DNA of 64,000 nt from Actinomycetota bacterium (lineage in GTDB: Bacteria > Actinomycetota > Acidimicrobiia > Spongiisociales > ZC4RG35). Shown here in pieces: positions 38,572 to 62,577 of the stretch (position 1 is its first letter; every line of letters begins with the position of its first letter). The DNA lies in the NCBI GenBank assembly GCA_046537785.1, contig JBKHKD010000002.1, forward strand, positions 71,082 to 135,081. The letters run 5' to 3'. The notes beneath the pieces are model-generated. The model made no database searches, had not been told where the DNA came from, and saw only the letters and a list, made by a program, of their open reading frames with translations. Both the position numbers and the translations under genes were made by a program.

Positions 38572-39150
38572 GTGACTTATCAGGAGCATCGTTGGATCCT
38601 CAGTGGTGGTCTCGCCTCCGGCAAGAGCCAGGTGAGGCGGTTGCTCGAGGAGCACGGATTTCACACGATCGACGCGGATCGGGTCGGTCACGACGTCCTG
38701 CGATCCGAGGGTCCTGCTTTCGACGAGGTCGTCACTCGCTGGCCCGACATTGTCGCGGACGGCGAGGTCGACCGCCGCGCCCTGGCTGCGGTCGTGTTCA
38801 ACGATCCAGTGGAACTCGCTGCGTTGGAGGCGATTACACACCCTCATATCTTCGACATGATCAATGCCCGGGTGGAGGATGTTGACGAAGCCGTGGTGGT
38901 CGAGGTTCCGGTTCTCGGGCACTCACTTGGCCCCGATTGGCGCAGGATCGTCGTCGATTGCCGGGACGAAATCCGTCTCGAGCGCGCAATCAGCCGTGGA
39001 ATGGCCGCGGCAGATGCTCAGGCGAGGATGGCATCTCAGCCGTCCCGAGCCGAATGGCTTGCGGTGGCGGACGTCGTGCTGCCGAACACCGGCACACTCC
39101 TGGACCTCCGACACACGGTGGACCGATGGACGAGCGTGACAGGTGTTTAG
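38572..39150 (+). CDS. coaE: Dephospho-CoA kinase
   Basis: P-loop GGLASGKS followed by a CoaE-like body; 192 aa; GTG start. Confidence 0.8.
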   Translation: MTYQEHRWILSGGLASGKSQVRRLLEEHGFHTIDADRVGHDVLRSEGPAFDEVVTRWPDIVADGEVDRRALAAVVFNDPVELAALEAITHPHIFDMINARVEDVDEAVVVEVPVLGHSLGPDWRRIVVDCRDEIRLERAISRGMAAADAQARMASQPSRAEWLAVADVVLPNTGTLLDLRHTVDRWTSVTGV

Positions 39151-40655
39151 TCGGGCCCGGCCAGATCGCCTTCGGCAAGTCGGGTTGCAATCGACAAGAC
39201 TCGTTCTGAGGTCACCTGCACCGGCTGGTCTGCTCCGACCAGGAAGCCAACAGGTTCCTTCGGCAGATCGGCGATGACCGTGCACTCCATGATCGCGCGC
39301 ATGGCATAGACATTCGTAGGTTCGTCCGGTCCGTCACATCCTCCGGGAATCCTGTAGGCGAGAAGGGCGCCGAGACGCTCGGCTATGTCGGCGTTGCTCC
39401 AGGTTTCTGAGGGGGACCCGACCTGTCCTCCCTCGCCGGTGCCGTGGTCGCCGGCGATGAGCACGGCGACATCGCGATCCAGGCTTGCAACGACATCCAG
39501 AAGGAGCGAGTCGACACATGAGAGTTGTTGGCGCAGGCGGTGATAGTCATCATCTGAGTCTGGGCGGGTTTCCGTTGCCACCACTTCGCATTTGGAGTCT
39601 ACGACGTACGGGGCATGAGGCAGGAACATGTGGGCGAATACCACATACGGTTCGTCATCGTCGAAGGCGTCGAGATTCGCGAGATGGTCGACTACGGGGA
39701 TGGTGTTGACTGCTGCCATCGAACCGTGTCTCTCCTCGATGATGTCCGCAAAGATGCTGGGCGCTAAGAGGTTCCAGTTGGCTTCACTCAACCAGGAGCT
39801 CTCAAGACATACGTCGGCACGGATACATGTTGACCCATCCCAACCACCCTCGATGTGGATGTATTGGAATCCGGCACTCCGCAGCGTCTCAACGACGAGA
39901 TTCTCTCCCCCGATTATGTCGTAGCTGCTTCGACGGTTACCCCATTGTCCCTTCGGAGAGTCGTCTGCTATCTGGTTTAGTTGAAGGATGCTGGGCACCG
40001 CAAGGCCGGTGAATGTGTTGTGGGACCATGAGACTTCGGGAACCTCGAACCCAGCTTCCATGAGGCCTTCTTGGAGTGGTTCGGTGTCGTGTCCGAACCA
40101 CTGGTCCGCGACCGACAACATGGGATAGCCATCAACGATGAGCACGAGAACATCTTCGACAGCCTCGGTGGGTCTCGCATCGACTGAGGAGTGGGCCTCG
40201 GATAGCGGGTAAGGGACACGGTGCGACACGTGCTGCGTTACGACCTGGAGCGCGGGAGCAAGCAGCGTCAAGGCCAGAATCACAACCACGAGATAGGTGT
40301 TGGTTCGATCCGAAACAGCCCAGTGGAGAAGTGCCCCAACCGCAGCGACCAAGACGAGCCACACGACTCCGGGTACCAGGAGAGTGGTGTGATAGTTGAG
40401 CAGGACGAAGAGGGTCCCGAAGACGATGAATCCGGCCGGGATCTGCCGGACTTCGAACGCGATCAAGGCGAAGAACACCAAAATGCCAATCGCCAACCCG
40501 ATCGACGACGTGAGGAAAACGTCCAAGGGGTTGGCGAGATCCCATGGATTCGCAGCCCAGAAGACGAGCGGCCTATAGAAGCTCCCTGCCACGACAAGCG
40601 AGATTCCCATCCATATCCGCTTTGTCTTCGATCGCTCGCTTCTCACGTTTCTCAT
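39147..40655 (-). CDS. Membrane-anchored alkaline-phosphatase-superfamily enzyme (sulfatase/LtaS/phosphodiesterase-like), paralog 1
   Basis: Four or five N-terminal TM segments plus an extracytoplasmic domain with [28 protein letters not shown] and IAGDHGT. Confidence 0.7.
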
Positions 40656-40705
40656 CCGACTCCATCGTTGAGAATCAGTCTCACCCCCTCGCTACTCTGC
40701 GGAGA

Positions 40706-42712
40706 GTGCCCCGATTCGAAGTGGTATCCGACTTTCAGCCAGCCGGCGATCAACCTAGAGCCATCGACTCGCTCGCCACGGGACTTGAGCGCGGCGACCG
40801 CTATCAGACCCTCCTTGGCATAACCGGGTCGGGAAAGTCAGCAACAATTGCATGGACGATCGAGAGGGTCCAGAAACCCACCCTGGTCCTCGCTCCCAAC
40901 AAGGCGCTGGCGGCACAGCTCGCCAACGAGTTCCGCCAGTTCTTCCCCAGCAACCGGGTCGAGTACTTCGTCTCCTACTACGACTACTACCAGCCGGAGG
41001 CGTACATCCCCCAGACCGACACTTTCATCGAAAAGGACGCCACCATCAACGACGAGATCGACCGGTTGCGTCACTCGGCCACCGCGGGCCTGCTGGTTCG
41101 GGACGATGTGATCATCGTTGCCTCGGTGTCGGCGATCTACGGCCTGGGGTCGCCAGAGCAGTACGAAGGACAGCTGCTAAGGCTCGTCCAGGGCGTCGAG
41201 TATCCGATGCAGGAGGCGATCAAGCGTCTCGTCGACATCCAGTACGAGCGCAACGAGGTGAACCTGGTTAGGGGCAAATTCCGGGTGAAGGGAGACACCC
41301 TGGAGGTCTTCCCTTCCTACGAAGAGACCATCATCAGGGTCCAGTTCTGGGGCGACGAAGTGGAGCGCATCGTCCGGCTCAACCCGGTCACCGGAGAGGT
41401 CGTCGAGGAGATGTCGGAGCTGTTCATCTTTCCGGCCACCCACTACGTGACCGAGCGGGAGCGGCTGCTGCGAGCCATCGCTGGCATCGAGGAGGAGTTG
41501 GAGGAGCGGCTGGTCGAGTTGGAGAAGAGCGGGAAGCTGCTGGAGGCGCAGCGGCTTCGCATGCGCACCAACTACGACCTGGAGATGATGCGGGAGGTCG
41601 GATTCTGCTCCGGCATCGAGAACTACTCACGGCATCTCGACGGTCGTAATCCCGGTCAGGCCCCCTACACCTTGCTGGACTACTTCCCCGACGACTATCT
41701 GACGGTCATCGACGAGTCCCACGTGACGGTGCCTCAGATCGGGGGCCAGTACGAGGGCGACCGTTCGAGGAAGGAAGTGCTGGTCGACCACGGGTTCAGA
41801 CTCCCTTCGGCGAAGGACAACCGGCCGCTTCGTTTCGACGAGTGGCTGGAGCGGGCCAACCAGGTGATCTTCATGTCCGCCACGCCGTCCGATTTCGAGG
41901 TCAGCCATTCCACCCAGGTGGTCGAACAGATCATCAGGCCCACCGGCCTGGTCGACCCCGAGGTGCGGATCAAGCCCACTAAAGGCCAGATCGACGATCT
42001 GCTGGACGAGATCAAGGAGCGTGCCCTCAAGGAGCAGAGGATCCTGGTCACAACCCTCACCAAGAAGATGGCCGAAGACCTCACCGACTACCTGTTGGAG
42101 ATGGGGGTCCGGGCCCGATACATGCACTCGGAGATCGACACCCTGGAGCGTGTCCAGATCATGAGGGAGCTTCGTCTGGGGGAGTTCGACGTGCTCGTCG
42201 GTATCAACCTGCTGCGTGAGGGACTCGACCTACCGGAGGTGTCCCTGGTGGCCATCCTCGATGCCGACAAAGAGGGCTTCCTCCGCTCAGAGACCTCACT
42301 CATCCAGATCATTGGTCGTGCCGCCCGAAATGTCGACGGCCAGGTGGTCATGTATGCCGACGACATAACCGACTCGATGCAGCGCGCCATCTACGAGACC
42401 AACAGGCGTCGGCAGGCGCAGCAGGAGTGGAATGCCGAGCATGGCATCGATCCTCAGACTGTGCGCAAGAGGGTCTCCGACATCCTCGAACTGGTTCAGA
42501 CTGATGCCCCCTCGGCTGATAGACGGAGGAGAGAGGTCGAGAAGCGGGCGCCACTCGATCTCGAGGGAGAGGACCTGGCACGTCTCGTCATGAGTCTCGA
42601 AGAGGAGATGCACGAGGCGGCCAAAGACCTTCGGTTTGAGTATGCGGCTCGATTACGAGACGAGGTGAACGAACTGAAGCGGGAGTTACGCGAGGTAGCG
42701 GAGGCGGGCTGA
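40706..42712 (+). CDS. uvrB: Excinuclease ABC subunit B
   Basis: [20 protein letters not shown], Walker A GITGSGKS, helicase motifs and a C-terminal UVR domain. GTG start 40706; the upstream part of track ORF 40544 overlaps the divergent gene. Confidence 0.95.
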
Positions 42713-42746
42713 GCAGTCCGAAGCGTCGACGGCTGGTCTAACGGTG

Positions 42747-42935
42747 CTAGTTGGATTCGCTCGATGCAGGCTGATCACCATCTGGAATGGGCGCACCATT
42801 CTTCCGCACCTTCGCCCACACTGCTCTCGAACCTTTGCGTACGTACTGCCAGCCAAGCCCGACTGCGGCCAATGCGGCAAGACCAGCTTGGAGCAATGCA
42901 CTCCCCGTTACCGGATCCAGATAACCAAAGACCAT
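42747..42935 (-). CDS. Possible small single-TM protein in a low-GC patch downstream of paralog 2
   Basis: MVFGYLDPVTGSALLQAGLAALAAVGLGWQYV… Only a weak case. Confidence 0.25.
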   Translation of the reverse strand: MVFGYLDPVTGSALLQAGLAALAAVGLGWQYVRKGSRAVWAKVRKNGAPIPDGDQPASSESN

Positions 42936-42957
42936 ATGACACCTCTTCAAACTGCGT

Positions 42958-44532
42958 TCAGCCGGCGTCATTCTGTAGGAAAGGTTCCATCCTGACAATA
43001 GGTCCACCGAACCCCGCCGCGTAATGACGTGTATCGAGTGTCGGGATTGGCTTTCCTGAGAGACACGACATGACCTCCCGGAATATGTTGACGGTAGTGA
43101 TGTCGTCAGGAAGCTCGCCGCGGCACGGCTCAGGAAGGCGGACGGCGCTTATCGTCGAGAATCGTTCTCTCAGTGCCGCATCAGGATTCTTGGAATCTAG
43201 AACCCAGTAGGAGTCTGGTCCGTGATCAGAGAGGATCACTACGATGGCGTCTGGGTCTACCTGACTCAGAAACGCTCGAAGGGTCTGGTTTGCGCATCGA
43301 ACTTGGTCCACCCACGCGTCTCGACGACGTTCCAACTGTTCCTCGGACATGTTTCCATCGTTCATGATGCGACCACCGAGATCAGGGTTGATACGCAAGT
43401 CGCAGTCGGCGTCCAGGAACAGCGGAGGATGTGGCAATGGAATGTGCAAGAAGACGAATTTCGGCGGCCCACGGCGCCAGTCCCTGACGAAGTCGTTCCA
43501 GTGTTCTAGCTGATCGATTCTCGCCAGGTTCAGGGCTGTCGTCGGGTTGTTGGCTTCCGGGTAGAAGAGACCGCCCGCCGGCGTGTTGAGGAGCAGCGCG
43601 TGTCCGGTGATGTCGAGGCCTGGACCAGGCACGCAGATATCGACCTCACCACCGCATTGGTTGTGCCAGTGGTCAGCTTCGGCATGTATGTACGTGTAGC
43701 CATTCGCTTTCAAGAGATTGACCAGGTCATTCTCACCAGCGACTTGACTCGCCAGATATGCGAGGTCTCGATTAGCGAACTCTGCTCCCTCTTGGTGTAC
43801 ATACGACATATTCAAGAGAGCGGGGAGCGAAAAGTGTGTGACTGAGTAATTGGCGACCGACTCGCGGGCGACATCGAATCCCAGGGCTCGGAGGTCATTT
43901 AGGAACGGCTCGTTGTCGTAGCCATAGAGATCTCGAATCACATCGGATCTCCCGTACCCGTCGAGAACTATCAAGACGATGTCTGGCTTCTCGACGAGCG
44001 TTTCGATCTCGATCGGTGTCTGGACACCTACCGATCGTTCCGGAGCCAGGATCGTGCTCGTCGCCGCATACAGCGACAGCGCTCCCGAATATGCCACAGA
44101 AATCACGAAGACGAGAAGCTTGAAGTAGTGCTGGTTGCCATACTTGATTGCCGCTGACAACACGAGTAGGAACACGATTAGGGATGTCGCGGCAGGATCA
44201 AGAGGACCGAAACCCTCTCCAGCGGACCAATGCCAGAAGGAGAGCAGCGTGACAGAAACTGCGGCGAGCGCCCTCCAGCTGGACACATCACGACGGGCAA
44301 ACGGAAGATACAGCCCTGTTGAGATGACGGTGAGTGCGGTACCGATGATGAAAACGCCCTCCACTGAAGCAAGAGCGGCCTGAGTGCCAGTCATGACAGC
44401 CAAGGGGCGATGGAACGACAGGGCGGTCAACTGCAAGAGAGCCCACCAAAGCGAAGGGCGAGCCCGGCTGGTTAATGAAGAGCCAACTCTCGCTGGTGGT
44501 GCGAGAGACTTCCGGTTACCCGCGACAGTCAT
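42958..44532 (-). CDS. Membrane-anchored alkaline-phosphatase-superfamily enzyme, paralog 2
   Basis: N-terminal TM segments; KPDIVLIVLDGYGRSD, SVTHFSLP, FVFLHIPLPHPP and ILSDHGPDS. Noticeably lower GC. Confidence 0.7.
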   Translation of the reverse strand: MTVAGNRKSLAPPARVGSSLTSRARPSLWWALLQLTALSFHRPLAVMTGTQAALASVEGVFIIGTALTVISTGLYLPFARRDVSSWRALAAVSVTLLSFWHWSAGEGFGPLDPAATSLIVFLLVLSAAIKYGNQHYFKLLVFVISVAYSGALSLYAATSTILAPERSVGVQTPIEIETLVEKPDIVLIVLDGYGRSDVIRDLYGYDNEPFLNDLRALGFDVARESVANYSVTHFSLPALLNMSYVHQEGAEFANRDLAYLASQVAGENDLVNLLKANGYTYIHAEADHWHNQCGGEVDICVPGPGLDITGHALLLNTPAGGLFYPEANNPTTALNLARIDQLEHWNDFVRDWRRGPPKFVFLHIPLPHPPLFLDADCDLRINPDLGGRIMNDGNMSEEQLERRRDAWVDQVRCANQTLRAFLSQVDPDAIVVILSDHGPDSYWVLDSKNPDAALRERFSTISAVRLPEPCRGELPDDITTVNIFREVMSCLSGKPIPTLDTRHYAAGFGGPIVRMEPFLQNDAG

Positions 44533-44640
44533 GCGTTTCTATTCTGATAGGGAACCATCAAGGAAACTGGCGATTCGGTCGTTAGAGAGTTTGGTGAGTT
44601 TCGGGATCAGGCCACGTTTGTTGCCAACCAGGGAGATCTG

Positions 44641-45951
44641 ATGGTGGAGCCGAGTCCGACGAACGACGTCGTTTACGTGGCGATGAGTGCAGACATCGTG
44701 CACCCCGGCCACATCAATCTGCTGGACAGAGCCGCTGAGCTGGGCCCGGTCACTGTCGGGCTGCTGACTGACGCAGCGATCGCCAGTTATAAGAGGCTGC
44801 CGCTGATGACTTATGAGGAGCGTCGTGCCGTCGTGGCACAGTTGCGACAGGTGAGTGAATTGATTCCGCAGGAGACCTTGGATTACGAGCCCAATCTTCG
44901 AACCCTGAGGCCGCGTTATGTCGTTCATGGCGACGATTGGCGGGAAGGGGTGCAGGCAAAGGTTCGCCAGCGGGTGATCGAAGTGTTATCCGAATGGGGA
45001 GGCGAGCTAGTCGAGCCCCGCTATACGCCAGGGATCTCCTCGACGAGGGTTCATCAGGCTCTGCTCGAGGTGGGGACCACTCCTGACATTCGCCGACGCG
45101 CCCTTCGCCGGCTTTTGGCCGTGCAGCCGATGACGCGAGTGTTGGAAGCGCACAACGGGTTGACTGGGCTCATCGTTGAACACACCACGGTCACTCAGGC
45201 CGAACGCCAGGTGGGTTTCGACGGTATGTGGCTCTCCAGCCTGACGGATTCGACGATCAAGGGGCGACCGGACACCGAGTACGTGGATCTGACGTCTCGA
45301 AGTGCCACTCTCCAAGAGATCCTCGAGGTCACGACGAAACCGATCCTCTATGACGCGGACACCGGCGGTCTCATCGATCACTTTCAGCTCAAGGTCAAGA
45401 CCCTGGAGCGTCTTGGAGTGTCCGCTGCAGTCATCGAAGACAAGGTCGGGCCGAAGAAGAACTCGCTCTTTGGCACCGATGTCGACCAAACCCAGGACGA
45501 TACCGCCTCGTTCGCTGAGAAGATCCGGGCTGGCAAGGAGGCTCAGGCTACCGAGGATTTCATGGTGATTGCCCGGATCGAGTCGCTGATCCTGGGAAAA
45601 GGTGTGGGCGACGCCCTGGAACGAGCGAGGATCTACGAGGAAGCCGGCGCCGATGCCCTCCTGATTCACTCCCGTGACCCGGACACCTCAGACTTGTTCA
45701 AGGTCCTGGGCGAGCTCGCCGGGTCGATTCCGCTGGTTGCAGTCCCATCTGGCTACTCGCATGTCTACGAGGACGCGCTCTCCCAAGCAGGAGCCTCCCT
45801 CGTCATCTATGCGAACCATCTGTTGCGGGCCGGGTATCCGGCGATGGTCGCCACGGCCAGCTCCATCCTGGAACACGGTCGCGCCAAAGAAGCCGAAGAA
45901 TGCTTACTTCCGATCAGCAACGCTCTCGAGCTCATCCCAGGTAACCGATGA
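44641..45951 (+). CDS. ppm: Bifunctional cytidylyltransferase / phosphoenolpyruvate phosphomutase fusion
   Basis: N-terminal roughly 130 aa TagD-like cytidylyltransferase ([19 protein letters not shown] … VHGDDWREG). C-terminal PEP mutase ([49 protein letters not shown]). Confidence 0.85.
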
Positions 45952-47057
45952 TCGAGGGCCAGGAGGCCATCCGGCTGTTGGAAGGGGCGGGGGCACGACT
46001 GTTCGTCGGAGTGCCCGATTCGCTCATGAAGGGCTTTTGCAGTGCCCTGGGTGACCATCGAGGTCCGGGTCGTCATGTGGTGGCCGCCAACGAGGGAGGG
46101 GCGGTGGCGACTGCGGCGGGCCATTATCTGGCGACAGGACGGCCGGCTGTGGTCTACATGCAGAATTCCGGCTTGGGAAACGCAGCGAGCCCCCTCGTCT
46201 CGCTGGCGAGCCGGCGGGTTTATGGGATCCCGATGCTGCTGATCATCGGATGGAGGGGTGAGCCCGGGACCGTGGATGAGCCGCAGCATGATCACCAGGG
46301 TGATATCACGACTCAGCAGCTCGAGCTTTTGGAGATATCGATATCGGTGGCGGAGCCCGACGACGATGGTTCCGTGTTCGTAGCTGCATACGAGAGGGCC
46401 CTGTCGGGTCAGGTACCCGTGGCAGTTCTGGTCCGCAAAGGAGTATTCGTTCCGCCACCCGAGATCGCTCCCGGTGGCGGATTGACACGGATGTCTGCGA
46501 TGGAGATGCTTCTCCAGCAGCTTCCGACAGACACCGCCTACGTAGCGACAACCGGATACACGGGACGCGAGTTGGCCCTCCTCCGCGCGAAGAGGGAAGA
46601 GAGTTGGTCCTCGGATCTGCTGATGGTGGGATCGATGGGACACGCCGCAGCGATCGCGCTCGGCATCGCCGTAGGGACCCCCGGACGACTCGTTTGCTGT
46701 TTCGATGGAGACGGAGCCGTGGTGATGCATATGGGGACGCTCGCCGCCGTTGGCGCCGAGCAACCTGCGAATCTCCTCCACGTGGTCATGAACAATGGAG
46801 TCCATGAGTCGGTTGGGGGACAACCGTCGGCTCTGAGGGATGCCGACATCCCCGCTTTGGCGCGCAGCTTGGGTTATGTCAGCGCGGAGGTAGCGACAGA
46901 TAAGGACGAATTGGCCAGCGCCGTCGACCGTCTTCACACAGATTCCGGCCCGAATCTGATCGAGGTGAGGATCAGTTCCGGGACGGTGGACGGCTTGCCG
47001 CGACCGTCGAGTCTCCGTGAGCGTGTCGTCGACATGAGGGATTGGTTGAGTGGCTGA
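45948..47057 (+). CDS. ppd: Phosphonopyruvate decarboxylase (ThDP-dependent)
   Basis: 369 aa; ThDP-binding [13 protein letters not shown]…NNG. ATGA-coupled to ppm. Confidence 0.8.
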
Positions 47058-48165
47058 GGTAACCCGAGGCATTGGCGCGCTCGAGACAAGCTTCAGGTCA
47101 GTCGATGGTTCGCCGTGGATCGTGATGAGTGGGAGGACTTCTTTCTCCGCGTCAGGCGCAGAGGCTTCTCTCGAGGATTTCCTCCAATCGGGGGCCAGAC
47201 GCCTGGTTGTCGAAGGGCCGCTTCCGACGACCGACGAGGTCGACCGTCTGGCGGCGGAGGTCGGGTCGAGTAGACCGCGAGCCATACTCGCCGTTGGGGG
47301 CGGACTGGTCATCGACACGATGAAGGCGCTTGCTCTTGCCCTGAGCACAGGAGGGAGTGCGCAGTCATTGCTCAACGGGAGCGCCGTACCGAGCGATGTC
47401 GAGATCCACACAGTTGCTGCCCCCACGACGGCCGGCTCAGGGGCAGAGCGCACGCCATTCGCGGTGCTGTACCACGATGGTGTCAAGCACTCGGTCGACG
47501 ATCCTCGTCTTCTACCGGATCATTCAATAATCGACCCGGCGTTGAGCAGTTCGGCACCTCGCCACGTGGCAGCCTCTGCGGCACTCGACGCTTTGGCTCA
47601 CTCCGTCGAGTCGATGTGGGCATGCCGGTCGACCGTCGAATCTATTGAGGTTGCGGCTCAGGCCCTAGGGCAAATCGTGGACAACATCGAAACTGGCGTT
47701 GTGGGTGAGTCGGCCCCTGCCCGGGAGACCCTCATGTATGCGGCTTCGGACGCGGGCTCCGCCATCGCGGTGTCGAGGACCACCGCGGCCCACGCCCTCT
47801 CGTACCACCTCACCGCTCGACATGGCGTACCTCATGGCCACGCCGTGGCGCTCATGTTGGGACGGGTCATTGCTTTCAACGGTGAAGTCGACGAGTCAAC
47901 CGTGCTTGATCAGCGCGGTCTGGCCCACGTAGCGTCCGTCGCAGCGCGGATCTCTGCTCTTCTCGGCATCGATGAACCGGTCGACGCCCCAGAGCGATTG
48001 CGTGACCTCGTCGCATCGCTGGGTTTGGCGCCGCGAGCGGATGAGGCGGCAGGCGCCATGGTCGATAGGGAGCGATGGATGACTGAAGTGAATGAGCAGC
48101 GACTCGGCAACAATCCACGACGTATCAACCGTGACGATCTATTAGCAATCGTGTGTGACGCATGA
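47050..48165 (+). CDS. Group III iron-containing alcohol dehydrogenase, putative phosphonoacetaldehyde reductase (PhpC/FomC-like)
   Basis: Fe-ADH fold (AVGGGLVIDTMKA … His-rich metal ligands ALAHSVESMWACRSTVESIEVAAQALGQIVDN…AAHALSYHLTARHGVPHGHAV). The GTG start overlaps ppd. Confidence 0.7.
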   Translation: MAEVTRGIGALETSFRSVDGSPWIVMSGRTSFSASGAEASLEDFLQSGARRLVVEGPLPTTDEVDRLAAEVGSSRPRAILAVGGGLVIDTMKALALALSTGGSAQSLLNGSAVPSDVEIHTVAAPTTAGSGAERTPFAVLYHDGVKHSVDDPRLLPDHSIIDPALSSSAPRHVAASAALDALAHSVESMWACRSTVESIEVAAQALGQIVDNIETGVVGESAPARETLMYAASDAGSAIAVSRTTAAHALSYHLTARHGVPHGHAVALMLGRVIAFNGEVDESTVLDQRGLAHVASVAARISALLGIDEPVDAPERLRDLVASLGLAPRADEAAGAMVDRERWMTEVNEQRLGNNPRRINRDDLLAIVCDA

Positions 48166-49316
48166 GAAAACTTCTCGAGCGCACCCGTCTGGCCATGGCG
48201 GAATCCAACAACATGGGCAAGTTGCTCACCCTCCCCAATGATGACCGTGCGGTCGTTGTCTACGCCGAAGATACGTTTAGCTACATCCAGCTCAAGGGAT
48301 ACCTGCGTGCCCTCTGGGTGAACCACGGGGTGCCTTATCAATACGTGACCTCGGCTCCCGATGATCCTCTTCTCGAAGATCCTCCCCCCGGGGCCACCAC
48401 CTGGTTCATTCGCGAACAACTGGCACGGATGATGAGCTCACTCGAGTGTGGCATCTTCATCACAACCATGCCCGATCTGGGAAACTTCCAGGTTCCCCGG
48501 CCGAAGTCTGGGAGGGCTTTGTATGTCTTCCACTCGCTCAACAGCACTCATACCGCCTATCGCTCTGGCGCATTCGACAACTATGACCAATTCATGTGCA
48601 CGGGACCGCATCACATCGAGGAGTTGGGTCGACTGCGGCCCGACTCGAATCCGGTGCTTTCTGAGGTGGGCTACTACAAGCTCGACCTGATCAGGGAAGA
48701 ACACGCAGATTGGCTTGAACGTGACGCGATCGAGGAGGATCTCGTCCTCCTTGCCCCATCGTGGGGGCGCCATAATCTTCTCGAGGCACACGGAAGTGAG
48801 ATCATCGCCTCGCTGGTAACTTCCGGTTTCCGGGTGATCGTCCGGCCCCATCCGCAATTCTTTCACTCGCTCTATCCCGAAGGCGCCGGGGTGATCGGGC
48901 GCCTCCAAGAGGAGTTTGGCGTCGACCATTCGGTCGAATTCGAGCTCAACATCGACTCTCAAGACTCATTCCATCGCAGCGCCCTGATGATCAGCGACTG
49001 GTCCGGTGCCGCCTACGAGTACGCGCTGGGGACACATCGGCGGGTCCTGTTCATCGATACCCCACAGAAGATCTTCAACCCGGGCTGGGAGCAGATCGGT
49101 CTCGCCAGCTTCGAGGGAGAGATGCGAGACCAGGTGGGTGAAGTGCTGGCCACCGATTCGGTGCATTCCACCGGGAACGTTGCCTACGACGTGATCCGAC
49201 GAAGCCGCTACTCCCGCTCCGACCTCGCGGAATTGGCGAGCCAAAAAATCTTCAACCTGGATGAGAGCGCCAGGGTCGGTGCCGAAGTAATCGCAGATAC
49301 CCTCTCTCGCTCATGA
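48162..49316 (+). CDS. TagF/TagB-like CDP-alcohol phosphotransferase family protein
   Basis: LLAPSWG (compare the TagF YAPTWR motif), VIVRPHP and ISDWSGAAYEYA (compare DYSS). ATGA-coupled upstream and downstream. Confidence 0.6.
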   Translation: MRKLLERTRLAMAESNNMGKLLTLPNDDRAVVVYAEDTFSYIQLKGYLRALWVNHGVPYQYVTSAPDDPLLEDPPPGATTWFIREQLARMMSSLECGIFITTMPDLGNFQVPRPKSGRALYVFHSLNSTHTAYRSGAFDNYDQFMCTGPHHIEELGRLRPDSNPVLSEVGYYKLDLIREEHADWLERDAIEEDLVLLAPSWGRHNLLEAHGSEIIASLVTSGFRVIVRPHPQFFHSLYPEGAGVIGRLQEEFGVDHSVEFELNIDSQDSFHRSALMISDWSGAAYEYALGTHRRVLFIDTPQKIFNPGWEQIGLASFEGEMRDQVGEVLATDSVHSTGNVAYDVIRRSRYSRSDLAELASQKIFNLDESARVGAEVIADTLSRS

Positions 49317-50860
49317 CTTTCCGAGACCCGGATCTGTCCGTGCCTCCGCGGCGGCTTCACTGGGTGGACTTTGCCCTCATCGCGATACCGGCCTTCCAAT
49401 TGCCACTTTTGGTCGTCGCTGAGAATGGTATCGGTATTGGACATCCGGAGCTTCTGTTGTTCTTCGGCGGTCTGGTATGGGGGTTAGGAGCGCTCATTCT
49501 CGTTGTCGTGCGCCGGCTCGGTGTCCCTGGCTCGGTCTCGGTACTCGGAGCGTGGCTCTGTGTCTACCTGTTCATGAACACTGGGGCGATTCCCGATAGG
49601 TTCGGATATCCACTCGGGCTGCTCGTGACTCTCGGGACTCTCACCATCTTGCTCTATCTGGTGTCTCAGAGGCCAGAGATCCGTAGTCGGCTCGTCCTAG
49701 GTCTAGCGAGTGTCCTGCTGCTGGCCGAGATACTCATCACCGGGTATGCGACCTTCGCCGACTTTGGGGAAAGTCGGGTCGCTTCTAGTCCGAGCTCGGT
49801 CGACGTCGAACTCGAGCAGAAGCCCGACGTGGTGATGATCATTGCGGACGCTTACGCGGGCGTAGATGGCTTGAGTCGATATTTCGACGTCGATTCACGA
49901 GTGAAGAACACGTACTCGATGAGCGGATTCTGGGTTCCAGACTTGGCATTCTCTCCATACGCAAGTACCGACACCGCACTCTCGACGATGCTGGACATGA
50001 GCTATCCCCTTACTGCCGGACCGGGCATAACTCGTGCGACAAGGCGGGATCTGTACAGGCTGATCGGAGGCGACAACCGCGTGGTCGATGTCTTTCGACA
50101 AAACGAATACCAGGTCACCATGATCGAATCCGGTTGGAGCGGATCGACCTGTGGTGATGTGATCGATACCTGTCCGAGCCCATTTATCGATGAGAGTGTT
50201 TATATCATGCTCGCCGAGACTTGGATTGGCGATCTCGTCCTAGACAGGTTTGGCTACGCGTTCACGGTGGGTACTCGGTCGTCGATGTCATGGCTGGATG
50301 ACAATCTCGTCGAACTGGCGACCGACGAGAAGCCGGACTTCGTTTTTGCCCATCTCGGTATACCGCATCCACCAATGTTCCTCGACTCGGATTGTGAGCT
50401 GCAGGTGACCCCGGACCGGAACGGTGTGACCATGCAGCGACGAGACGTTCCAACCGACGACAGGAAGAAGCTCTATCTCGAGCAGGCAGCGTGTGTCGAT
50501 TCGTTCGTCACGTCACTCGCCGACTCATTGCCGAATGATGTTGTGTTGATACTGACCGGCGACCATGGGACCGACTCGCACCACCAACTGGCAGAGCATC
50601 CGGAGGATTGGTCGACTGACATGATTCGCGAACGATTGAACACGATGTTTGCCTTTCGCGGTCCCGAGGAATGCCGACCGCCCGAGCCCGTTCTCACGGC
50701 CGACCTCTTCCGGCATCTGTTCACCTGCCTGAGTGACGAATCATTGCCGGTGCCACCGCAACAGTTGTACATCTATGCCGCTCTGGAGATCGATGGGGCA
50801 CCCTCACCGATCGTCGAGGTGGAGCCATCGGTGATCGCTGAACTTGTCGGTGGGAGCTGA
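49313..50860 (+). CDS. Membrane-anchored alkaline-phosphatase-superfamily enzyme, paralog 3
   Basis: N-terminal TM segments; KPDVVMIIADAYAGVDG, FVFAHLGIPHPPMF and ILTGDHGTDS. Last gene of the phosphonate operon. Confidence 0.7.
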   Translation: MTFRDPDLSVPPRRLHWVDFALIAIPAFQLPLLVVAENGIGIGHPELLLFFGGLVWGLGALILVVVRRLGVPGSVSVLGAWLCVYLFMNTGAIPDRFGYPLGLLVTLGTLTILLYLVSQRPEIRSRLVLGLASVLLLAEILITGYATFADFGESRVASSPSSVDVELEQKPDVVMIIADAYAGVDGLSRYFDVDSRVKNTYSMSGFWVPDLAFSPYASTDTALSTMLDMSYPLTAGPGITRATRRDLYRLIGGDNRVVDVFRQNEYQVTMIESGWSGSTCGDVIDTCPSPFIDESVYIMLAETWIGDLVLDRFGYAFTVGTRSSMSWLDDNLVELATDEKPDFVFAHLGIPHPPMFLDSDCELQVTPDRNGVTMQRRDVPTDDRKKLYLEQAACVDSFVTSLADSLPNDVVLILTGDHGTDSHHQLAEHPEDWSTDMIRERLNTMFAFRGPEECRPPEPVLTADLFRHLFTCLSDESLPVPPQQLYIYAALEIDGAPSPIVEVEPSVIAELVGGS

Positions 50861-51289
50861 AGAGCTTGGACTTGACCACGGCGGTCTGACGTAAGGGCGC
50901 TACCTAGGGCACGCGGTCTACAAGATCCATCCGGATCATAGGTTCCCCCTGTCGCATGGGGTGTCTGCCGGGAGATACCCATCCCTTTGGGCGACCTGAG
51001 CAATAGGACGGCCACCCGGCGGATCGGTTCACACAGGATCCTCCGGCCAGCTGGCGTCAGCGGAGCGTTAGCGCGCATGACAAGCCTCCTTTTGGGTGTT
51101 GGTTGCGTGCAAGCACCGCACAACCAGGGAGGCTCAAACCCTCACAACGTCAACAACCTCTCTTAATCAGAACACCTAGCCGTTCTTGAGCGTGAGCCCG
51201 GGCTGTGGACAGGAGTGCAGGAAGCGGGATTGCTTCATGGGTGGAAGAGTCCTTTGGAAACAAGGGTTCCCGTTCGATAATGACGAGTT

Positions 51290-52672
51290 GTGAACAAGTT
51301 GTCCGTCCTCATGCCCGTCTACAACGAGTCGCGCACCTTGCGGACGATTGTCGCCAAGGTGCTTGCCTCACCGGTCGACGCTGAGATCGAGTTGGTCTGT
51401 GTAGATGATTGCTCGAAAGATGATTCTCTTGCGATTCTTCACGAGCTGGCAGAGGCCGATTCCCGGATCAGGGTCATTGCCCAGTCGGTGAACTTGGGCA
51501 AGGGCAAAGCGATCCGTACCGCTATCGGGCACATGACCGGCGATGTCGGGATCATCCAGGACGCCGACTTGGAGTATGACCCGAATGAGTACCCGCTCGT
51601 TCTGGCGCCGCTCCTGGAAGGACGAGCCGACGCAGTGTACGGCTCCCGGTTCGCCTCCAGCGAGCAGCGTCGTGTCCTCTTCTTCTGGCACGCGCTAGGC
51701 AACAAGCTGCTCACGCTCATGTCGAATATGGCCAACGACCTCAATCTCACCGACATGGAGACCTGCTACAAGGCGGTTCGCGCCGACGTTCTCAAGGAGC
51801 TTCGACTCACCAGCGACCGGTTCGGGCTTGAGCCGGAGATCACCGCTCGCCTCGCCCAGTGGGGCGCCCGTATCTACGAGGTGCCGATCAGTTATCACGG
51901 ACGCACCTACGCCGAAGGCAAGAACATCGGTTGGAGAGACGGAATGGAAGCACTCTGGCTCATCTTTAAGTTCCGGCTTCTCGACACTCGAGCGACGAAC
52001 GAAGACTCGGTCGTCACGAGGCAGAGCCTGGGGAGTGCCCCCCGCTTCCGCCGCTGGATCCTGTCATCGTTTGACGACTACCTGAGAGACACCGTGCTCG
52101 AGATCAATGCCGGGCCGGGGCACACTACTAGCCATCTGCTCGACGCAAGGAGACTGATCGTCTCTGATGAGGAGCTGGTCCACGTCGAATCGCTGCGTCG
52201 TCGTTTCGGTCACTTGGAGAACGTCGAGGTGATGACGAGCGAAGAGTTGGATCACTCAGACGTGCGGGTCTCGTCGGCTCTGGTGTTCGACGGGTTACAA
52301 CGTGCCGGCGAGCCCAAGGAGTTCTTGGCCTCGGTAGCGTCTCATGTCGAGTCGGGCGGTCATGTTCTCATCCAGGTGCCCGCGGGCCCTGAGCTCTTCG
52401 GACCCACCGACAGGGCCGCTGGGCATGTGAAACGCTTCGACCGCCAAGATATCGAAGATGTCGTTCGCGCCGCCGGGTTGGAGCTCGTGGATATTGCCGA
52501 GGTGAACCGTCTCGGAGCCCTCGGCTGGAGGCTCCATCATTGGCTGGGGAAGGGGCGCATCACGACGTCGGAGGCTCGTCTCTTCGACCTCCTGGTTCCG
52601 CTGGTACGCTCGCTCGACCCCATCTTCCCCGGCCGTGGCCTCAGTCTGCTGGTGGTGGCTCGATCGCCTTGA
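51290..52672 (+). CDS. GT2 (DPM1/GtrB-like polyprenyl-phosphate glycosyltransferase) fused to a C-terminal class-I SAM methyltransferase-like domain
   Basis: LSVLMPVYNE, CVDDCSKD and IQDADLEYDP (GT-A DxD), then VLEINAGPGHTT, a Rossmann-type MTase motif I. Confidence 0.7.
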   Translation: MNKLSVLMPVYNESRTLRTIVAKVLASPVDAEIELVCVDDCSKDDSLAILHELAEADSRIRVIAQSVNLGKGKAIRTAIGHMTGDVGIIQDADLEYDPNEYPLVLAPLLEGRADAVYGSRFASSEQRRVLFFWHALGNKLLTLMSNMANDLNLTDMETCYKAVRADVLKELRLTSDRFGLEPEITARLAQWGARIYEVPISYHGRTYAEGKNIGWRDGMEALWLIFKFRLLDTRATNEDSVVTRQSLGSAPRFRRWILSSFDDYLRDTVLEINAGPGHTTSHLLDARRLIVSDEELVHVESLRRRFGHLENVEVMTSEELDHSDVRVSSALVFDGLQRAGEPKEFLASVASHVESGGHVLIQVPAGPELFGPTDRAAGHVKRFDRQDIEDVVRAAGLELVDIAEVNRLGALGWRLHHWLGKGRITTSEARLFDLLVPLVRSLDPIFPGRGLSLLVVARSP

Positions 52673-52743: not shown

Positions 52744-53484
52744 TTGCGTTGGGAGCACGCAATGTATCGAAATCTGAGAGTCATGGGCTTAGTACCTGTG
52801 CTCGATGAGGAGAAGAAGGTCGGTCTCGTTCTCGAGCGAGTCCCCACCGACGTCGTCGACCTGACCCTGGTGATCGATGACGGATCGACCGACGCCTCAG
52901 CTCAGGTAGCGCGCTCCAAAGGTGCCAAAGTGATCGAACTCGGGGCCACTGTCGGTGTCGGAGCAGCGATCAGGACCGGGTTCCAGTACGCGATCGCAGA
53001 AGGGTTCGATGTGGTCGTCGTGATGGCGGGAAATAACAAGGACTCCCCGGAGGAGATCCCGCTGCTCTTGGACGAATTGACCGATCGCCCGGCGGACTTG
53101 GTTCAGGGCTCCAGATGGTCGGGCGATGCTAGTGACTTCGGAGAGATGCCGGCCTATCGCAAGGTGGCCACACGCCTTCACCCGATGCTGTTCAATCTCA
53201 TCTCCCCCGTCAAGCTGACAGACACGACCAACGGCTTTCGGGCTGTCCGTACCAGCCTCCTCGCCGATGAGGACCTGAATCTCGATCAGAGCTGGCTCGA
53301 CGACTACGAACTCGAGGTCTATCTGCTCTATAGGGCGGCCCAGCTCGGGTACGAGCTCTCCGAGGTCGGCGTCACCAAGAGATACCCTCCGAAGGCATTG
53401 GGGCAGACAAAAATGAAGCCGATATCGGGATGGTGGTCGATCCTTCGTCCGCTGGTTCTGCTGGCCGTACGGCTCAAGAGGTGA
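52744..53484 (+). CDS. GT2 family glycosyltransferase (DPM1-like)
   Basis: LVIDDGSTD and VVVVMAGNNKDSPEE…LVQGSRW. Confidence 0.75.
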   Translation: MRWEHAMYRNLRVMGLVPVLDEEKKVGLVLERVPTDVVDLTLVIDDGSTDASAQVARSKGAKVIELGATVGVGAAIRTGFQYAIAEGFDVVVVMAGNNKDSPEEIPLLLDELTDRPADLVQGSRWSGDASDFGEMPAYRKVATRLHPMLFNLISPVKLTDTTNGFRAVRTSLLADEDLNLDQSWLDDYELEVYLLYRAAQLGYELSEVGVTKRYPPKALGQTKMKPISGWWSILRPLVLLAVRLKR

Positions 53485-53499
53485 GGAAGTGACTCGAAA

Positions 53500-54531
53500 A
53501 TGATGACAGGAATCGGAGTCGTGGGTGCCGGTCATTGGGGTCCCCACCTGATACGAAACTTCAACGATCATCTGTCCAGTCAGGTCCTCTGGGTAGCGGA
53601 GAGGGATGAGCGTCGCAAGAAGGGCATCTCGGAACGGTTTCCGGGGACGGCAGTCACTGCTGATGTGGATGAGATTCTGTCGGATGACCGGGTCGATGCC
53701 GTCATCGTGGCGACACCGACTTCTACCCACGCTGCGATTGTTCAAGATGCGCTGGAAGCCGACAAGCACGTACTAGTGGAAAAGCCCATCGCCTATGGTC
53801 TTGAGGACTCCATCGCCCTTTGCGAGATGGCCGACAGCCGAGGTCTCACGTTGATGGTGGGGCACGTGTTCCTGTTCAACCCAGCGTTCCGTGCCGCACG
53901 GGATTACATCCACCGGGGCGACTTGGGGCTCATCAGATACCTGTCAATGGTTCGTACCAATCTGGGTCCGGTTCGCACCGACGTGAACGCTGCTTGGGAC
54001 TTGGCCAGCCACGACGTTTCCATCGCGAACTATTGGCTGGATGCGCTGCCTAAGAGTGTCAGTGCAAGAGGAGGGAGTTGGCTGAACGAAGGGATCGACG
54101 ACGTCGTCTTTGCGACTCTCTCCTATCCGGATGATGTGCTCGTGCACATCGAAGCTTCGTGGCTGAATCCGAGAAAGCGACGTCTGGTGGCGGCTATCGG
54201 GTCTGATCGCATGTTGACGGTGGACGACATGGATCTGAACGAGCCAATTCGCCTTTATGACAAGGGGGTCCTAGAGCGCCCGAAGGAGGACTTCTCTGAT
54301 ACCTTCGCCGGTTTCCGCAATCAGATCAGAGAGGGAGAGGTGCGTATCCCCCATGTCACCGGAGGCGAGCCCTTGCGAACCGAGTGTGACGAGTTTTTGC
54401 GCCGCATCGCGGGCAGCGATGACACCCTTTCCGATGGATGGGAGGGAGCACGGGTCGTCGCGGTACTCGACGCGATTGACCGATCGATCGTTGAGGGCGG
54501 TGCCTCCATCGTCGTGGAGAAGATTCGATGA
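53500..54531 (+). CDS. Gfo/Idh/MocA-family NAD(P)-dependent sugar oxidoreductase (WbpB-like)
   Basis: GIGVVGAGHWGPHLIRNF Rossmann motif plus a Gfo/Idh/MocA C-terminal domain. Confidence 0.85.
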   Translation: MMTGIGVVGAGHWGPHLIRNFNDHLSSQVLWVAERDERRKKGISERFPGTAVTADVDEILSDDRVDAVIVATPTSTHAAIVQDALEADKHVLVEKPIAYGLEDSIALCEMADSRGLTLMVGHVFLFNPAFRAARDYIHRGDLGLIRYLSMVRTNLGPVRTDVNAAWDLASHDVSIANYWLDALPKSVSARGGSWLNEGIDDVVFATLSYPDDVLVHIEASWLNPRKRRLVAAIGSDRMLTVDDMDLNEPIRLYDKGVLERPKEDFSDTFAGFRNQIREGEVRIPHVTGGEPLRTECDEFLRRIAGSDDTLSDGWEGARVVAVLDAIDRSIVEGGASIVVEKIR

Positions 54532-55631: not shown

Positions 55632-55632
55632 C

Positions 55633-59625: not shown

Positions 59626-59754
59626 CGGAGGGACATAAAAGCGCGTGATCTCTTCCGACGACCGACATATCAGTCGTGCAGTTGTTAGGATCAGAACATG
59701 TGTTCGAAGGTGATGCGCATTACACTTGCGTAACTTCCGACCACCAGGCGAGCT

Positions 59755-62577
59755 TTGTCCACCGAATCGATACTCATCAGGGGCGCCCGTGAGCACAACC
59801 TCAAGGACCTCACGGTCGAGCTGCCCCGTGAGAAGCTGATCCTCTTCACGGGGATCTCCGGATCCGGGAAGTCGTCTCTGGCCTTTGACACCATCTATGC
59901 CGAAGGCCAGCGCCGTTATGTCGAGTCGCTTTCCGCGTACGCCCGGCAGTTCCTCGGGCAGATGGACAAGCCCGACGTCGACTTCATCGACGGGCTATCG
60001 CCAGCGATATCGATCGACCAGAAGACGGCATCACGGAACCCGCGGTCGACGGTGGGCACCGTCACCGAGGTCCACGACTACCTCCGCCTCCTCTACGCCA
60101 GAATCGGCACCGCCCACTGTCCCAACGACGGGACACCGGTGGAAAGACAGACACCCCAGCAGATCGTCGACCGGATCCTTGAGCTGGAGGAGGGGACCAA
60201 GTTCCAGGTGCTTGCACCCGTGGTGCGCGGCCGCAAAGGCGAGTACGAGGGGCTGTTGAAGGAGCTGAGCGAGAAGGGCTTCGCCCGGGCCCGCATCGAC
60301 GGGGAGGTGCGAGACCTCACCGAGGACATTCGCCTCGACCGCTACTACCAGCACACGATCGAGGTCATCGTCGACCGTCTCGTGCGCAAAGACGGGATGG
60401 AGCAGCGGCTCACCCAGTCACTGGAGACGGCGCTGTCGCTCACCGAAGGCGTCGCCGACATCGAGATCGTCGACGGCTCCACGCTCACCTTCTCCCAGCA
60501 CCTGGCCTGCTCGGAGTGCGGGCTGTCCTTCGAGGACCTCCAGCCCCGCAACTTCTCATTCAACAGCCCCTACGGGGCGTGCCCTGAGTGCTCCGGGATC
60601 GGCACCAGGTTCCAGGTCGACGCCGACCTGGTGATCGCCGACCCCGACCTGGCGCTCAGCGAAGGCGCCATCCCCATGTGGTCTTCCAACCGAATGCGCT
60701 ACTACCACCGGCTGCTCAACGGTCTGGCGGGGGCCCTCGGGTTCTCCATGGACACGCCGTGGAAGGACCTGTCTGAGGACATGAGGGAGAAGATCCTCTA
60801 CGGGCTGGGCGAGGAGAAGATCACCGTGGAGTACACCAACAGGTTCGGGAGGAAGCGCCGCTGGGACGCCAACTTCGAAGGAGCCATTCCGTTCCTCAAC
60901 AGGAGGCACGAGTCGGCCGAGACGGACAACGCCCGGGAGTACTACCAGGAGTTCATGGCCGAGGTGCCCTGTGATGCATGTAACGGCGGGCGCCTCAACC
61001 CTATCTCGCTTGCGGTCACCATCGAGGAGCGCAACATCGCCGAGGTCTCCGACCTCAGTCTTGCCGAGGCACACGAGTTCTTCGATCGGTTGGAGCTGTC
61101 GGAGCGTGACGCCCACATCGCCGAGCGGGTGCTGAAAGAGATTCGGTCGCGGATCAAGTTCCTCCTCGACGTAGGTCTCGACTACCTGACTCTGTCCCGC
61201 TCGGCCGCCACGCTCGCCGGGGGCGAGGCGCAGCGGATCCGTCTCGCCACCCAGATCGGGTCCGGCCTCGTGGGTGTCCTCTACATCCTGGACGAGCCCT
61301 CGATCGGCCTCCACCAGCGAGACAACAAACGGCTCATCGAGACCCTGCTCCGTCTCCGCGACCTGGGCAACACGCTCATAGTGGTGGAGCACGACGAGGA
61401 AACGATCAGGGTTGCCGATCACATCGTCGACATCGGCCCGGGCGCAGGAGAGCACGGCGGGCACGTCGTAGTGCAGGGAACACTCGAAGACGTGAAAGAC
61501 AACTCCGACTCGCTCACCGGGGACTATCTGGCGGGGCGTCGTCAGATCGAGACCCCGCTGCTCCGTCGACAGGGAAATGGGAGCTCCATCAACGTTTTCG
61601 GCGCCTCAGAGCACAACCTGCAGGGGATCGACGTCGAGTTCCCTCTCGGCGTCTTCACCGCCGTCACCGGCGTGTCAGGGTCGGGAAAATCGACACTGGT
61701 GGAGGAAATCCTCTGGAAGACCCTCGCGGCCAAGGTGAACCGGGCCAGGGTCGTGCCCGGGCGGCACAAGAAGATCGAGGGCATCGACCTCATCGACAAG
61801 GCCATCGACATCGACCAGTCGCCCATCGGACGGACACCACGTTCCAACCCGGCCACATACACCAAGGTCTTCGATCACATCAGGAGTCTTTTCTCCCAGA
61901 CCCAGGAGGCCCGGGCCCGGGGTTACAAGCCGGGACGGTTCTCCTTCAACGTCTCCGGAGGGCGCTGCGAGGCCTGCAAGGGGGACGGGACCATCAAGAT
62001 CGAGATGCACTTCCTCCCCGACGTCTACGTGCCCTGCGAGGTGTGCGGGGGGAAGCGGTACAACCGGGAGACCCTCGAGATCCTGTGGAAAGGGCACAAC
62101 ATCTCCGACGTTCTCGAAATGTCCGTCGAGGATGCCCTCGAGTTCTTCGAGAACCAGCCCAAGATAATCCGGGTGCTCCAGACCCTCTACGACGTTGGTC
62201 TCGGCTATATCCGGCTCGGCCAGCCGGCGACGACACTGTCCGGTGGCGAAGCGCAGCGGATCAAGCTGGCGTCGGAGCTGGGCAAGCGTTCGACGGGCAA
62301 GACCCTCTACATCCTCGACGAGCCGACCACGGGCCTCCACTTCGAGGACATCAGGAAGTTGTTGCAGGTGCTGCAGCGTCTCGTGGACGCCGGCAACACA
62401 GTCATCGTCATCGAGCACAACCTCGACGTGGTGAAGTCGGTCGACCACATCATCGACCTCGGGCCCGAAGGGGGCAGCGGGGGAGGGCGGATAGTGGCCA
62501 TCGGCAGTCCCGAGGAAGTGGCCTCCGTCACCGAGAGCTACACCGGCAAATTCTTGCGGGAGATGGTGGGTACTTAG
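59755..62577 (+). CDS. uvrA: Excinuclease ABC subunit A
   Basis: 940 aa with two ABC ATPase modules ([25 protein letters not shown]), zinc fingers (CxxC) and YARQF. TTG start. Confidence 0.95.

Follow-up and report, generated by a model that had tools for sequence, protein, structure and literature searches.

Three paralogous genes for membrane-anchored enzymes of the alkaline-phosphatase (AP) type, designated par1, par2 and par3, flank uvrB and a phosphonate biosynthesis operon in a 64 kb stretch of DNA from an Actinomycetota bacterium of the class Acidimicrobiia (assembly GCA_046537785.1, contig JBKHKD010000002.1, positions 71,082 to 135,081), the whole of which is referred to below as the window. 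In related loci, the clades to which par2 and par3 belong are genetically linked to the operon, a four-gene cassette that, by analogy with characterised pathways, should make 2-hydroxyethylphosphonate (HEP) and activate it as its cytidine monophosphate (CMP) conjugate, CMP-HEP. The reading put forward here, to which a probability of roughly 0.4 is attached, is that par2, and secondarily par3, would transfer a HEP head group from a lipid-linked donor outside the membrane, in the style of EptA and LtaS. The genes on which this argument is built are the following, the TagF-like entry standing for a protein without transmembrane (TM) helices.

39147..40655, minus strand: paralogue 1 (par1), 502 amino acids (aa), with D175, T216, H342/H347 and D403-H404; named 'hypothetical protein' by NCBI.
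42958..44532, minus strand: paralogue 2 (par2), 524 aa, transcribed divergently from the phosphonate operon; PF00884 at 41.7 bits.
44641..45951, plus strand: fusion of a cytidylyltransferase and a phosphoenolpyruvate (PEP) mutase (CT-Ppm), of Fom1-like architecture, PF01467 plus PF13714.
45948..47057, plus strand: phosphonopyruvate decarboxylase (Ppd), TIGR03297 at 395 bits against a cutoff of 312.5, with TPP_enzyme_N and TPP_enzyme_C.
47050..48165, plus strand: Fe-dependent alcohol dehydrogenase (Fe-ADH), PF00465 and PF25137.
48162..49316, plus strand: TagF/TagB-like GT-B phosphotransferase, 384 aa, soluble, with no TM helix and no Pfam match of its own.
49313..50860, plus strand: paralogue 3 (par3), 515 aa, with D179, T219, H347/H352 and D417-H418; named 'sulfatase-like hydrolase/transferase' by NCBI.

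The gene order in the window, coaE, par1 (minus strand), uvrB, par2 (minus strand), phosphonate operon, par3, bears out a preliminary description of this DNA in which the three paralogues were said to bracket uvrB and the operon. All three open reading frames (ORFs) had been placed there exactly as listed above, and they are homologous over almost their whole length, with pairwise BLASTP identities of 24% for par1 and par2 (E 1e-30), 27% for par1 and par3 (E 1e-44) and 28% for par2 and par3 (E 1e-43). A hidden Markov model (HMM) of the family recovered only these three copies in the 64 kb window. Against a PF00884 threshold of 25 bits, par3 scores 28.4 and par2 the 41.7 given above; par1 is clearly homologous to both although it has no PF00884 match, its hit to Phosphodiest staying below threshold at 12.9 bits, and no NCBIfam model matches any of the three. 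Judged from the modelled structure, the paralogues are members of the AP superfamily in its PF00884 ('Sulfatase') branch, with the alpha/beta core fold common to sulfatases, LtaS and EptA.

Hydropathy profiles of the paralogues and an AlphaFold2 (AF2) model of par3 (pLDDT 90, pTM 0.89) both give five N-terminal membrane helices, located in par3 at residues 12-38, 45-68, 73-97, 99-118 and 122-149, followed by an alpha/beta domain. Basic residues, as read from the par3 sequence, occur at the N-terminus and in loops 2 and 4, with an acidic linker past helix 5, a positive-inside pattern that fits a five-TM, N-in/C-out topology with the AP domain facing outward; the six conserved cysteines would also fit an extracytoplasmic domain. 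The N-terminal multi-TM anchor and extracytoplasmic domain proposed beforehand agree with the hydropathy, the AF2 helices and the loop charges alike.

The predicted active site is intact in all three proteins. Placed on the AF2 model of par3, D179 follows strand 173-178, T219 opens helix 219-228 and D417-H418 follows strand 411-416, and the positions of the Asp, the Thr nucleophile, the PHxP His and the Asp-His pair are invariant across the three paralogues. Among 169 family members (par3 numbering), D179 is retained in 168. Thr occupies position 219 in 161 sequences and Ser in the other eight; H352, D417, H418, G419 and all but one of the six Cys occur in every sequence, the remaining Cys, C454, in 167. 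The preliminary description had asked whether the nucleophile and metal ligands survive; with both in place, the paralogues are not non-catalytic by residue loss, and this near-invariance argues for catalysis.

The motifs quoted at the outset required some correction. The first of them, (L/I)V(L/I)DGY, holds for par1 (LIVDGY) and par2 (IVLDGY), but par3 reads IIADAY, with Ala in place of Gly; the His motif given as HxPHxP is present, but in the form H-x3-P-H-x-P ([24 protein letters not shown]); and the last, (G/S)DHG(T/P)DS, is found as SDHGPDS in par2 and GDHGTDS in par3, but as GDHGTGE in par1. D-A-Y after strand 1 recurs in 10 of 11 close relatives of par3 (the remaining one having DAL), with D-G-Y in par1, par2 and more distant relatives. 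The Ala of the par3 clade at position 180, beside the metal-binding Asp, could relate to substrate choice.

An exhaustive profile search of representatives clustered at 50% identity retrieved 15,424 of them at E<=1e-3, 10,946 at 1e-10 and 3,414 at 1e-30. Most of the 150 best family matches listed are about 500 aa long and aligned nearly full-length. The paralogues belong to a large unnamed family of enzymes with the LtaS/EptA architecture. When the par3 model was used as a Foldseek query, full-length membrane proteins ranked first, namely EptA (5fgn), PbgA (6xlp, 6v8q) and MCR-1 (9nww), in alignments of 571-640 columns that include the membrane domain.

LtaS, EptA/MCR-1, OpgB, GacH and BcsG modify envelope acceptors outside the membrane, drawing on phospholipids as donors and working through a Thr intermediate, and some Firmicutes carry multiple LtaS-type paralogues. 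With EptA, MCR-1 and EptC, as well as PptA of Neisseria, the paralogues share five N-terminal TM segments and an outer domain of the AP superfamily, a Thr at the N-terminus of a helix, an Asp-His pair and a disulfide-rich ectodomain. They differ from EptA, MCR-1 and EptC in the first metal ligand, which is Asp in the paralogues and Glu in the EptA class, and in an identity of only 9-14%; their host being an actinobacterium, the acceptor would also not be lipid A, unlike that of EptA and MCR-1. We know of no case in which a phosphonate head group has been shown for the EptA/MCR-1 class. With LtaS/LtaP and GacH/OpgB, the paralogues have in common the five TM segments and extracellular AP domain, the Thr nucleophile, a putative single-metal site and the occurrence of several paralogues per genome. 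These enzymes decorate surface glycopolymers, and the same role is proposed for the paralogues; they are set apart from LtaS, GacH and OpgB in that there is no sequence-level match and that two of the three paralogue clades are genetically tied to a cassette for C-P biosynthesis, a linkage not known to us for LtaS, GacH or OpgB. The earlier placement of the family with LtaS, EptA and NPP is upheld for the LtaS/EptA architecture but not at the level of sequence, where the tests of EptA and LtaS membership failed: the paralogues show no PF08019 (EptA_B_N) and no NCBIfam match, and no EptA or MCR chain came up in the PDB profile search at E<=10.

The four cassette genes between par2 and par3 form a tightly packed operon, with a 4-bp overlap between the TagF-like gene and par3. 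CT-Ppm scores 353.4 bits against TIGR02320 (cutoff 319.55) and matches PF01467 at E 3.4e-14, and its EDKX5NS motif ([10 protein letters not shown]) lies at residue 266. Sharing the PF01467-PF13714 fusion of Fom1, a CyTase-Ppm fusion that forms CMP-HEP (PMC6697681), it would make phosphonopyruvate and probably activate a phosphonate as the CMP conjugate. Compared with the Fom1 and PntC systems, the cassette would feed a surface glycan and not an antibiotic, and is followed by a TagF-like transferase and not by LicD-like or radical-SAM enzymes. The best NCBIfam match of Fe-ADH is Phn_Fe-ADH (TIGR03405), at 145 bits below the cutoff of 423.7; the enzyme is probably the phosphonoacetaldehyde reductase that makes HEP, the role described for PhpC-type reductases (PMC8942020). 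A promoter and terminator scan of positions 42600-51400 gave results at or below shuffle expectation.

The phosphonate operon had been recognised in the preliminary description, in which the 384-aa TagF-like gene was overlooked. Its product (48162-49316) has a GT-B fold most similar to TagF; against PF04464, whose gathering threshold is 22.1 bits, it reaches 11.1 bits (E 0.18), while 21 of 24 aligned homologues match the same model at E<=0.01 (best 7.5e-10), and some are named 'CDP-glycerol glycerophosphotransferase family protein' by NCBI. Altogether 688 homologues were found at E<=1e-3, many of them wrongly labelled 'YidC/Oxa1 family membrane protein insertase' by JGI. The protein is a candidate CMP-HEP:acceptor phosphonyl transferase, and the most obvious user of the CMP-activated phosphonate. 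The cassette of CT-Ppm, Ppd, Fe-ADH and TagF-like genes was seen in Acidimicrobiia, in a metagenome-assembled genome (MAG) of Planctomycetota and in untyped metagenome contigs.

The setting of the paralogues was compared across 54 loci (numbered L001 onwards), 42 of them from scans of genomes and metagenomes with par3-like seeds, almost all Acidimicrobiia MAGs, and 12 reached via individual homologues. The loci thus go back to par3 and to the TagF-like protein as seeds, and the narrow alignment used as locus query biases the sampling toward par3-like sequences. Response regulator, histidine kinase, coaE, uvrB and uvrA serve as landmarks, 74-96% identical in L001-L044, L050 and L051. The content between uvrB and uvrA varies, with differing sets of GT2, GT2-methyltransferase, sugar-modification, AZOBR_p60025-family and AP-type genes, the last in one to four copies per island; the coaE/uvrB-uvrA interval of Acidimicrobiia MAGs is a surface-glycan island of hypervariable content.

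When 68 family members were placed in a neighbour-joining tree (100 bootstrap replicates), the window copies fell into three clades, with support of 90 for par1, 86 for par2 and 99 for par3. Given identities of 24-28% and orthologues for each copy in its own well-supported clade, a recent triplication was rejected. The triplication that had been tied to the phosphonate pathway consists instead of ancient, separate clades of a family that is routine in islands without the cassette. Members of the par1 clade sit at the coaE|uvrB junction and occur also in islands lacking the cassette (L020, L023); this clade is not linked to the cassette. Members of the par2 clade, by contrast with par1, are divergent from and adjacent to CT-Ppm in the window and in L006, L012, L017, L050 and L051; L014 has a fragment. 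The par2-like gene of L051 stands, along with all four cassette genes, at another site, between the histidine kinase gene and coaE, from which it follows that the five genes moved as a unit. Every par3-clade member lies in a locus that has the cassette (the window, L012, L014, L015, L016, L017 and L018), except that the L019 locus ends too early to be judged. The phosphonate link suggested for all three copies is thus retained, on comparative linkage, for the par2 and par3 clades but not for par1.

Eight distant loci, one in the Planctomycetota MAG and the others on untyped metagenome contigs, were found through the TagF-like protein. The four-gene cassette is present in seven of them; in the eighth, L053, the TagF-like gene and Fe-ADH lie beside a different nucleotidyltransferase, with no match to Ppm or Ppd. 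Seven of the eight, all but L046, have a PF00884 gene only a few genes away from the TagF-like one, and in L052 and L054 it is divergent, in the same orientation as in the window. The neighbours inspected in L045, L047, L048 and L049 have multi-TM N-termini, D(E/G)(F/W/Y) following strand 1, PHxP or a variant PH motif, and DHG, and no CxPxR was found in them; they are only remotely related to the window family, scoring 13-37 bits against the family HMM.

Some of these loci show further irregularities. CT-Ppm and Fe-ADH are reduced to short fragments in L014 (729-1317), where Ppd is missing and the TagF-like gene and par3 orthologue are intact, and the cassette genes of L048 (3486-5884) are split into several small ORFs; the broken genes reflect either decay of the cassette or error in assembly or sequencing. 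In L047 (12469-14100) the gene call joins Ppd, by fusion or read-through, to a secreted N-terminal domain of the Phosphodiest (NPP) type, and the same locus carries a gene for a phosphonate-binding periplasmic protein and three further PF00884 genes, one with a weak PASTA-domain match.

In the proposed route, the PEP mutase, phosphonopyruvate decarboxylase and Fe-alcohol dehydrogenase would make HEP, which the fused cytidylyltransferase would then activate to CMP-HEP. The TagF-like enzyme would esterify HEP to a membrane-bound acceptor at the inner face, the HEP-bearing acceptor would be flipped to the outer face, and there par2, joined by par3 where present, would move the HEP-bearing group onto the surface glycan via a covalent Thr intermediate. 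The cassette-independent clades, and probably par1, would perform the same reaction with ordinary phospholipid head groups. The donor, the acceptor, the occurrence of transfer rather than hydrolysis and the order of the steps are what we infer from these comparisons; since CMP-HEP would be confined to the cytoplasm, the AP domain faces outward and the known class works with lipid donors, a lipid-linked HEP donor is the most economical model. A more specific form of the proposal, in which the five-gene module of multi-TM AP enzyme, CT-Ppm, Ppd, Fe-ADH and TagF-like protein, kept across lineages, would constitute a two-compartment phosphonylation route with a phosphonyl-Thr intermediate on the outside, is regarded as doubtful; its lipid-linked HEP donor, built from CMP-HEP by the TagF-like enzyme in the cytoplasm, would possibly be phosphonylated phosphatidylglycerol, or even a short teichoic-acid-like poly-HEP chain.

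A number of points weigh against HEP transfer by par2 and par3, and they begin with the TagF-like enzyme. As this is the most obvious user of the CMP-phosphonate, phosphonylation need not fall to the AP-type enzymes; the TagF-like enzyme alone could put HEP on a lipid-linked glycan inside the cell, making an external transferase unnecessary. On this alternative, which is considered unlikely, the TagF-like enzyme would be the sole phosphonyl transferase, acting in the cytoplasm on lipid-linked precursors, and the AP paralogues would be LtaS-, GacH- or EptA-like transferases of glycerol phosphate or phosphoethanolamine, with phosphatidylglycerol or phosphatidylethanolamine as donors, their genes lying near the cassette because of a shared polymer and not a shared chemistry. 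It draws on the AP-type genes being standard even where the uvrB-uvrA interval lacks the cassette (L002, L003, L007, L020, L023, L025 and L032), and, since many islands carry the family without phosphonate genes, the family is not phosphonate-specific. The unlinked par1 clade speaks the same way, as does L046, where the cassette is present with no AP-superfamily gene within 10 kb. In addition, one species (L001/L020/L021) lacks the cassette but has a member of the par2 clade, and L050 and L051 have the cassette without a par3-clade gene, which makes par3 an optional addition. The sampling of loci was moreover seeded and not random, so that all counts describe the loci found and carry no significance test. 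Set against the shared-polymer explanation are the par2-like gene and cassette behaving as one five-gene unit that was relocated together in L051, the recurrence of the divergent pairing with distantly related AP genes in L052 and L054 together with an AP neighbour in seven of the eight distant loci, and the par3 clade, at a bootstrap of 99, never being seen without the cassette. The linkage of par2 and par3 to the cassette is tighter than a shared polymer would predict.

Other difficulties concern the enzymes themselves. Within the TM region of the 169 sequences no residue reaches 80% conservation and no obvious lipid-binding signature is seen, and the fold search cannot tell transferases from hydrolases, S1 sulfatases scoring as high as EptC and LtaS. 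The lack of conserved TM residues would also suit an alternative in which the paralogues are extracytoplasmic hydrolases, either phosphodiesterases or phosphonate-monoester hydrolases, that trim, remodel or release a decorated polymer, as phosphorylcholine esterase does on teichoic acid. It is established that NPP-type AP enzymes with a Thr nucleophile cleave diesters and phosphonate monoesters. That AP-family enzymes strip phosphonates from glycans has also been proposed (PMC8931226), a precedent which counts for hydrolysis. Such a role is nevertheless judged quite improbable, given that a conserved five-TM domain is a hallmark of lipid-dependent transferases and their relatives (EptA, MCR-1, LtaS, PbgA), whereas for a hydrolase one anchor, or just a signal peptide, would suffice, that the genes lie inside biosynthetic operons, par3 being joined to the TagF-like gene by the overlap noted above, and that several paralogues occur in one island. 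Far less probable again is that the paralogues are non-catalytic binders of lipid or glycolipid of the PbgA/YejM type, or true formylglycine sulfatases, despite the presence of PbgA (6vat, 6xlp) and S1 sulfatases among the best structural matches and the Pfam domain name 'Sulfatase'. No C/S-x-P-x-R motif occurs at the nucleophile position of the three paralogues, which have Thr instead ([20 protein letters not shown] and YASTDTALST), and no domain of the formylglycine-generating enzyme (FGE) or the anaerobic sulfatase-maturating enzyme (anSME) was found in any major ORF of the window, maturases being able to lie elsewhere and hence not a strict requirement there. The sulfatase-maturase association that had been named as a check is thus absent from the window, and the identity as formylglycine sulfatases was rejected on the Thr nucleophile, the missing CxPxR and the lack of a maturase gene in the window; taken with the near-invariant nucleophile and metal ligands of the 169 members, the same features indicate that the paralogues are neither sulfatases nor degenerate PbgA-like binders.

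Partial hydrolysis of phosphonoglycans is said to have given a HEP glycerol ester in the work of Yu et al. in 2014, with O-methylated galactose reportedly present as well; these features would agree with a glycerol-linked donor and with the GT2-methyltransferase fusion of the window, and are not used as evidence. The HEP phosphonoglycan clusters of Glycomyces and Stackebrandtia resemble the present locus in having the Ppm/Ppd/Fe-ADH route to HEP beside glycan genes, and the exopolysaccharide of Stackebrandtia carries esterified HEP (PMC8942020). Sulfatase-family genes beside ppm are mentioned in passing in the same paper, for Selenomonas GCF 400 and for 'Group 4 phosphonolipids' (PMC8942020). 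The present locus differs from these reports in that no role was given there to the sulfatase-family genes and no TagF-like partner was described; the searchable literature yielded neither an account of such a partner nor a function for the AP-type genes, and nothing relevant on TagF-type enzymes with PEP mutase.

The window as a whole is a core chromosomal region. It carries dnaE, polA and rpsA, a Tad pilus locus and genes of a two-component system, after which come coaE, uvrB, the island and uvrA. The landmarks and the remaining genes of the island are as follows.

40544..42712, plus strand: uvrB, a conserved landmark.
51290-52672, plus strand: GT2-methyltransferase fusion, downstream of par3.
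52744-53484: second GT2, in the island downstream of par3.
53500-56199, plus strand: GFO/IDH/MocA oxidoreductase, DegT aminotransferase and hexapeptide acetyltransferase in a row, a sugar-modification trio.
56139-57299 and 57349-58452, plus strand: two multi-TM membrane proteins of the AZOBR_p60025 family in tandem (NCBIfam NF046093).
58438-59796, minus strand: convergent multi-TM protein with no assigned function and with homologues in several related islands.
59755..62577, plus strand: uvrA, the conserved landmark that closes the island.

Relatives of uvrB mostly align from about residue 46 onward and the first 45 residues of the listed ORF look non-native, so that the true start probably lies about 45 codons downstream of 40544 and the listed ORF is over-extended; par1, starting at 40655 on the minus strand, and uvrB would then begin almost back-to-back, with little or no spacer. 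The GT2 domain encoded at 51290-52672, to which a methyltransferase domain dependent on S-adenosylmethionine (SAM) is fused, resembles polyprenyl-phosphate sugar synthases (AglJ, PgfS, ArnC and PpgS, all below cutoff). Many islands, whether or not they have the cassette, keep the fusion at 57-84% identity; it may, speculatively, be linked to O-methylated sugars of the polymer. The sugar-modification trio, which we take to be the usual set for a 2,3-diacetamido sugar nucleotide (WbpB/E/D-like), is present in a subset of the related islands only. The two tandem proteins score 128 and 103 bits against NF046093 (AZOBR_p60025-family cell surface glycopolymer formation protein), whose cutoff is 150.

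Base composition adds little to the history of these genes. The G+C content (GC) is 0.567 for par2, 0.573 for par3, 0.584 for par1, 0.583 for the TagF-like gene and 0.559 for positions 42713-43100, against 0.623 for the window, and the three paralogues and several island genes lie 3-7 points below the window mean. The lowest GC of the region, 0.550, belongs to the gene at 58438-59796, with a GC at third codon positions (GC3) of 0.558. The low GC attributed earlier to par2 and 42713..43100 is weakly true relative to the window mean, but par2 does not stand out. The suggestion that this composition hints at separate acquisition of par2 does not stand, other island genes being equally low or lower, as at 58438-59796. 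With the paralogues and island genes similarly low, GC and GC3 were rejected as evidence of separate acquisition; the argument for such an event rests on synteny and not on composition.

The analysis characterises a large unnamed family of LtaS/EptA architecture which, in the sampled loci (almost all Acidimicrobiia MAGs), sits in a hypervariable surface-glycan island. The attachment of phosphonates to cell-surface glycans was called 'enigmatic' in the paper that established the nucleotidyl activation of phosphonates (PMC6697681). The compact, recurring module of AP-type enzyme, CT-Ppm, Ppd, Fe-ADH and TagF-like protein names two candidate transferases for the attachment of HEP to glycan, whereby this step becomes a directly testable hypothesis. 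Should the link to phosphonates fail, the paralogues would still be ordinary-looking homologues of surface-polymer phosphotransferases, of modest interest. If the two-compartment route were true, they would provide the first phosphonyl-transferring member of the LtaS/EptA enzyme class.

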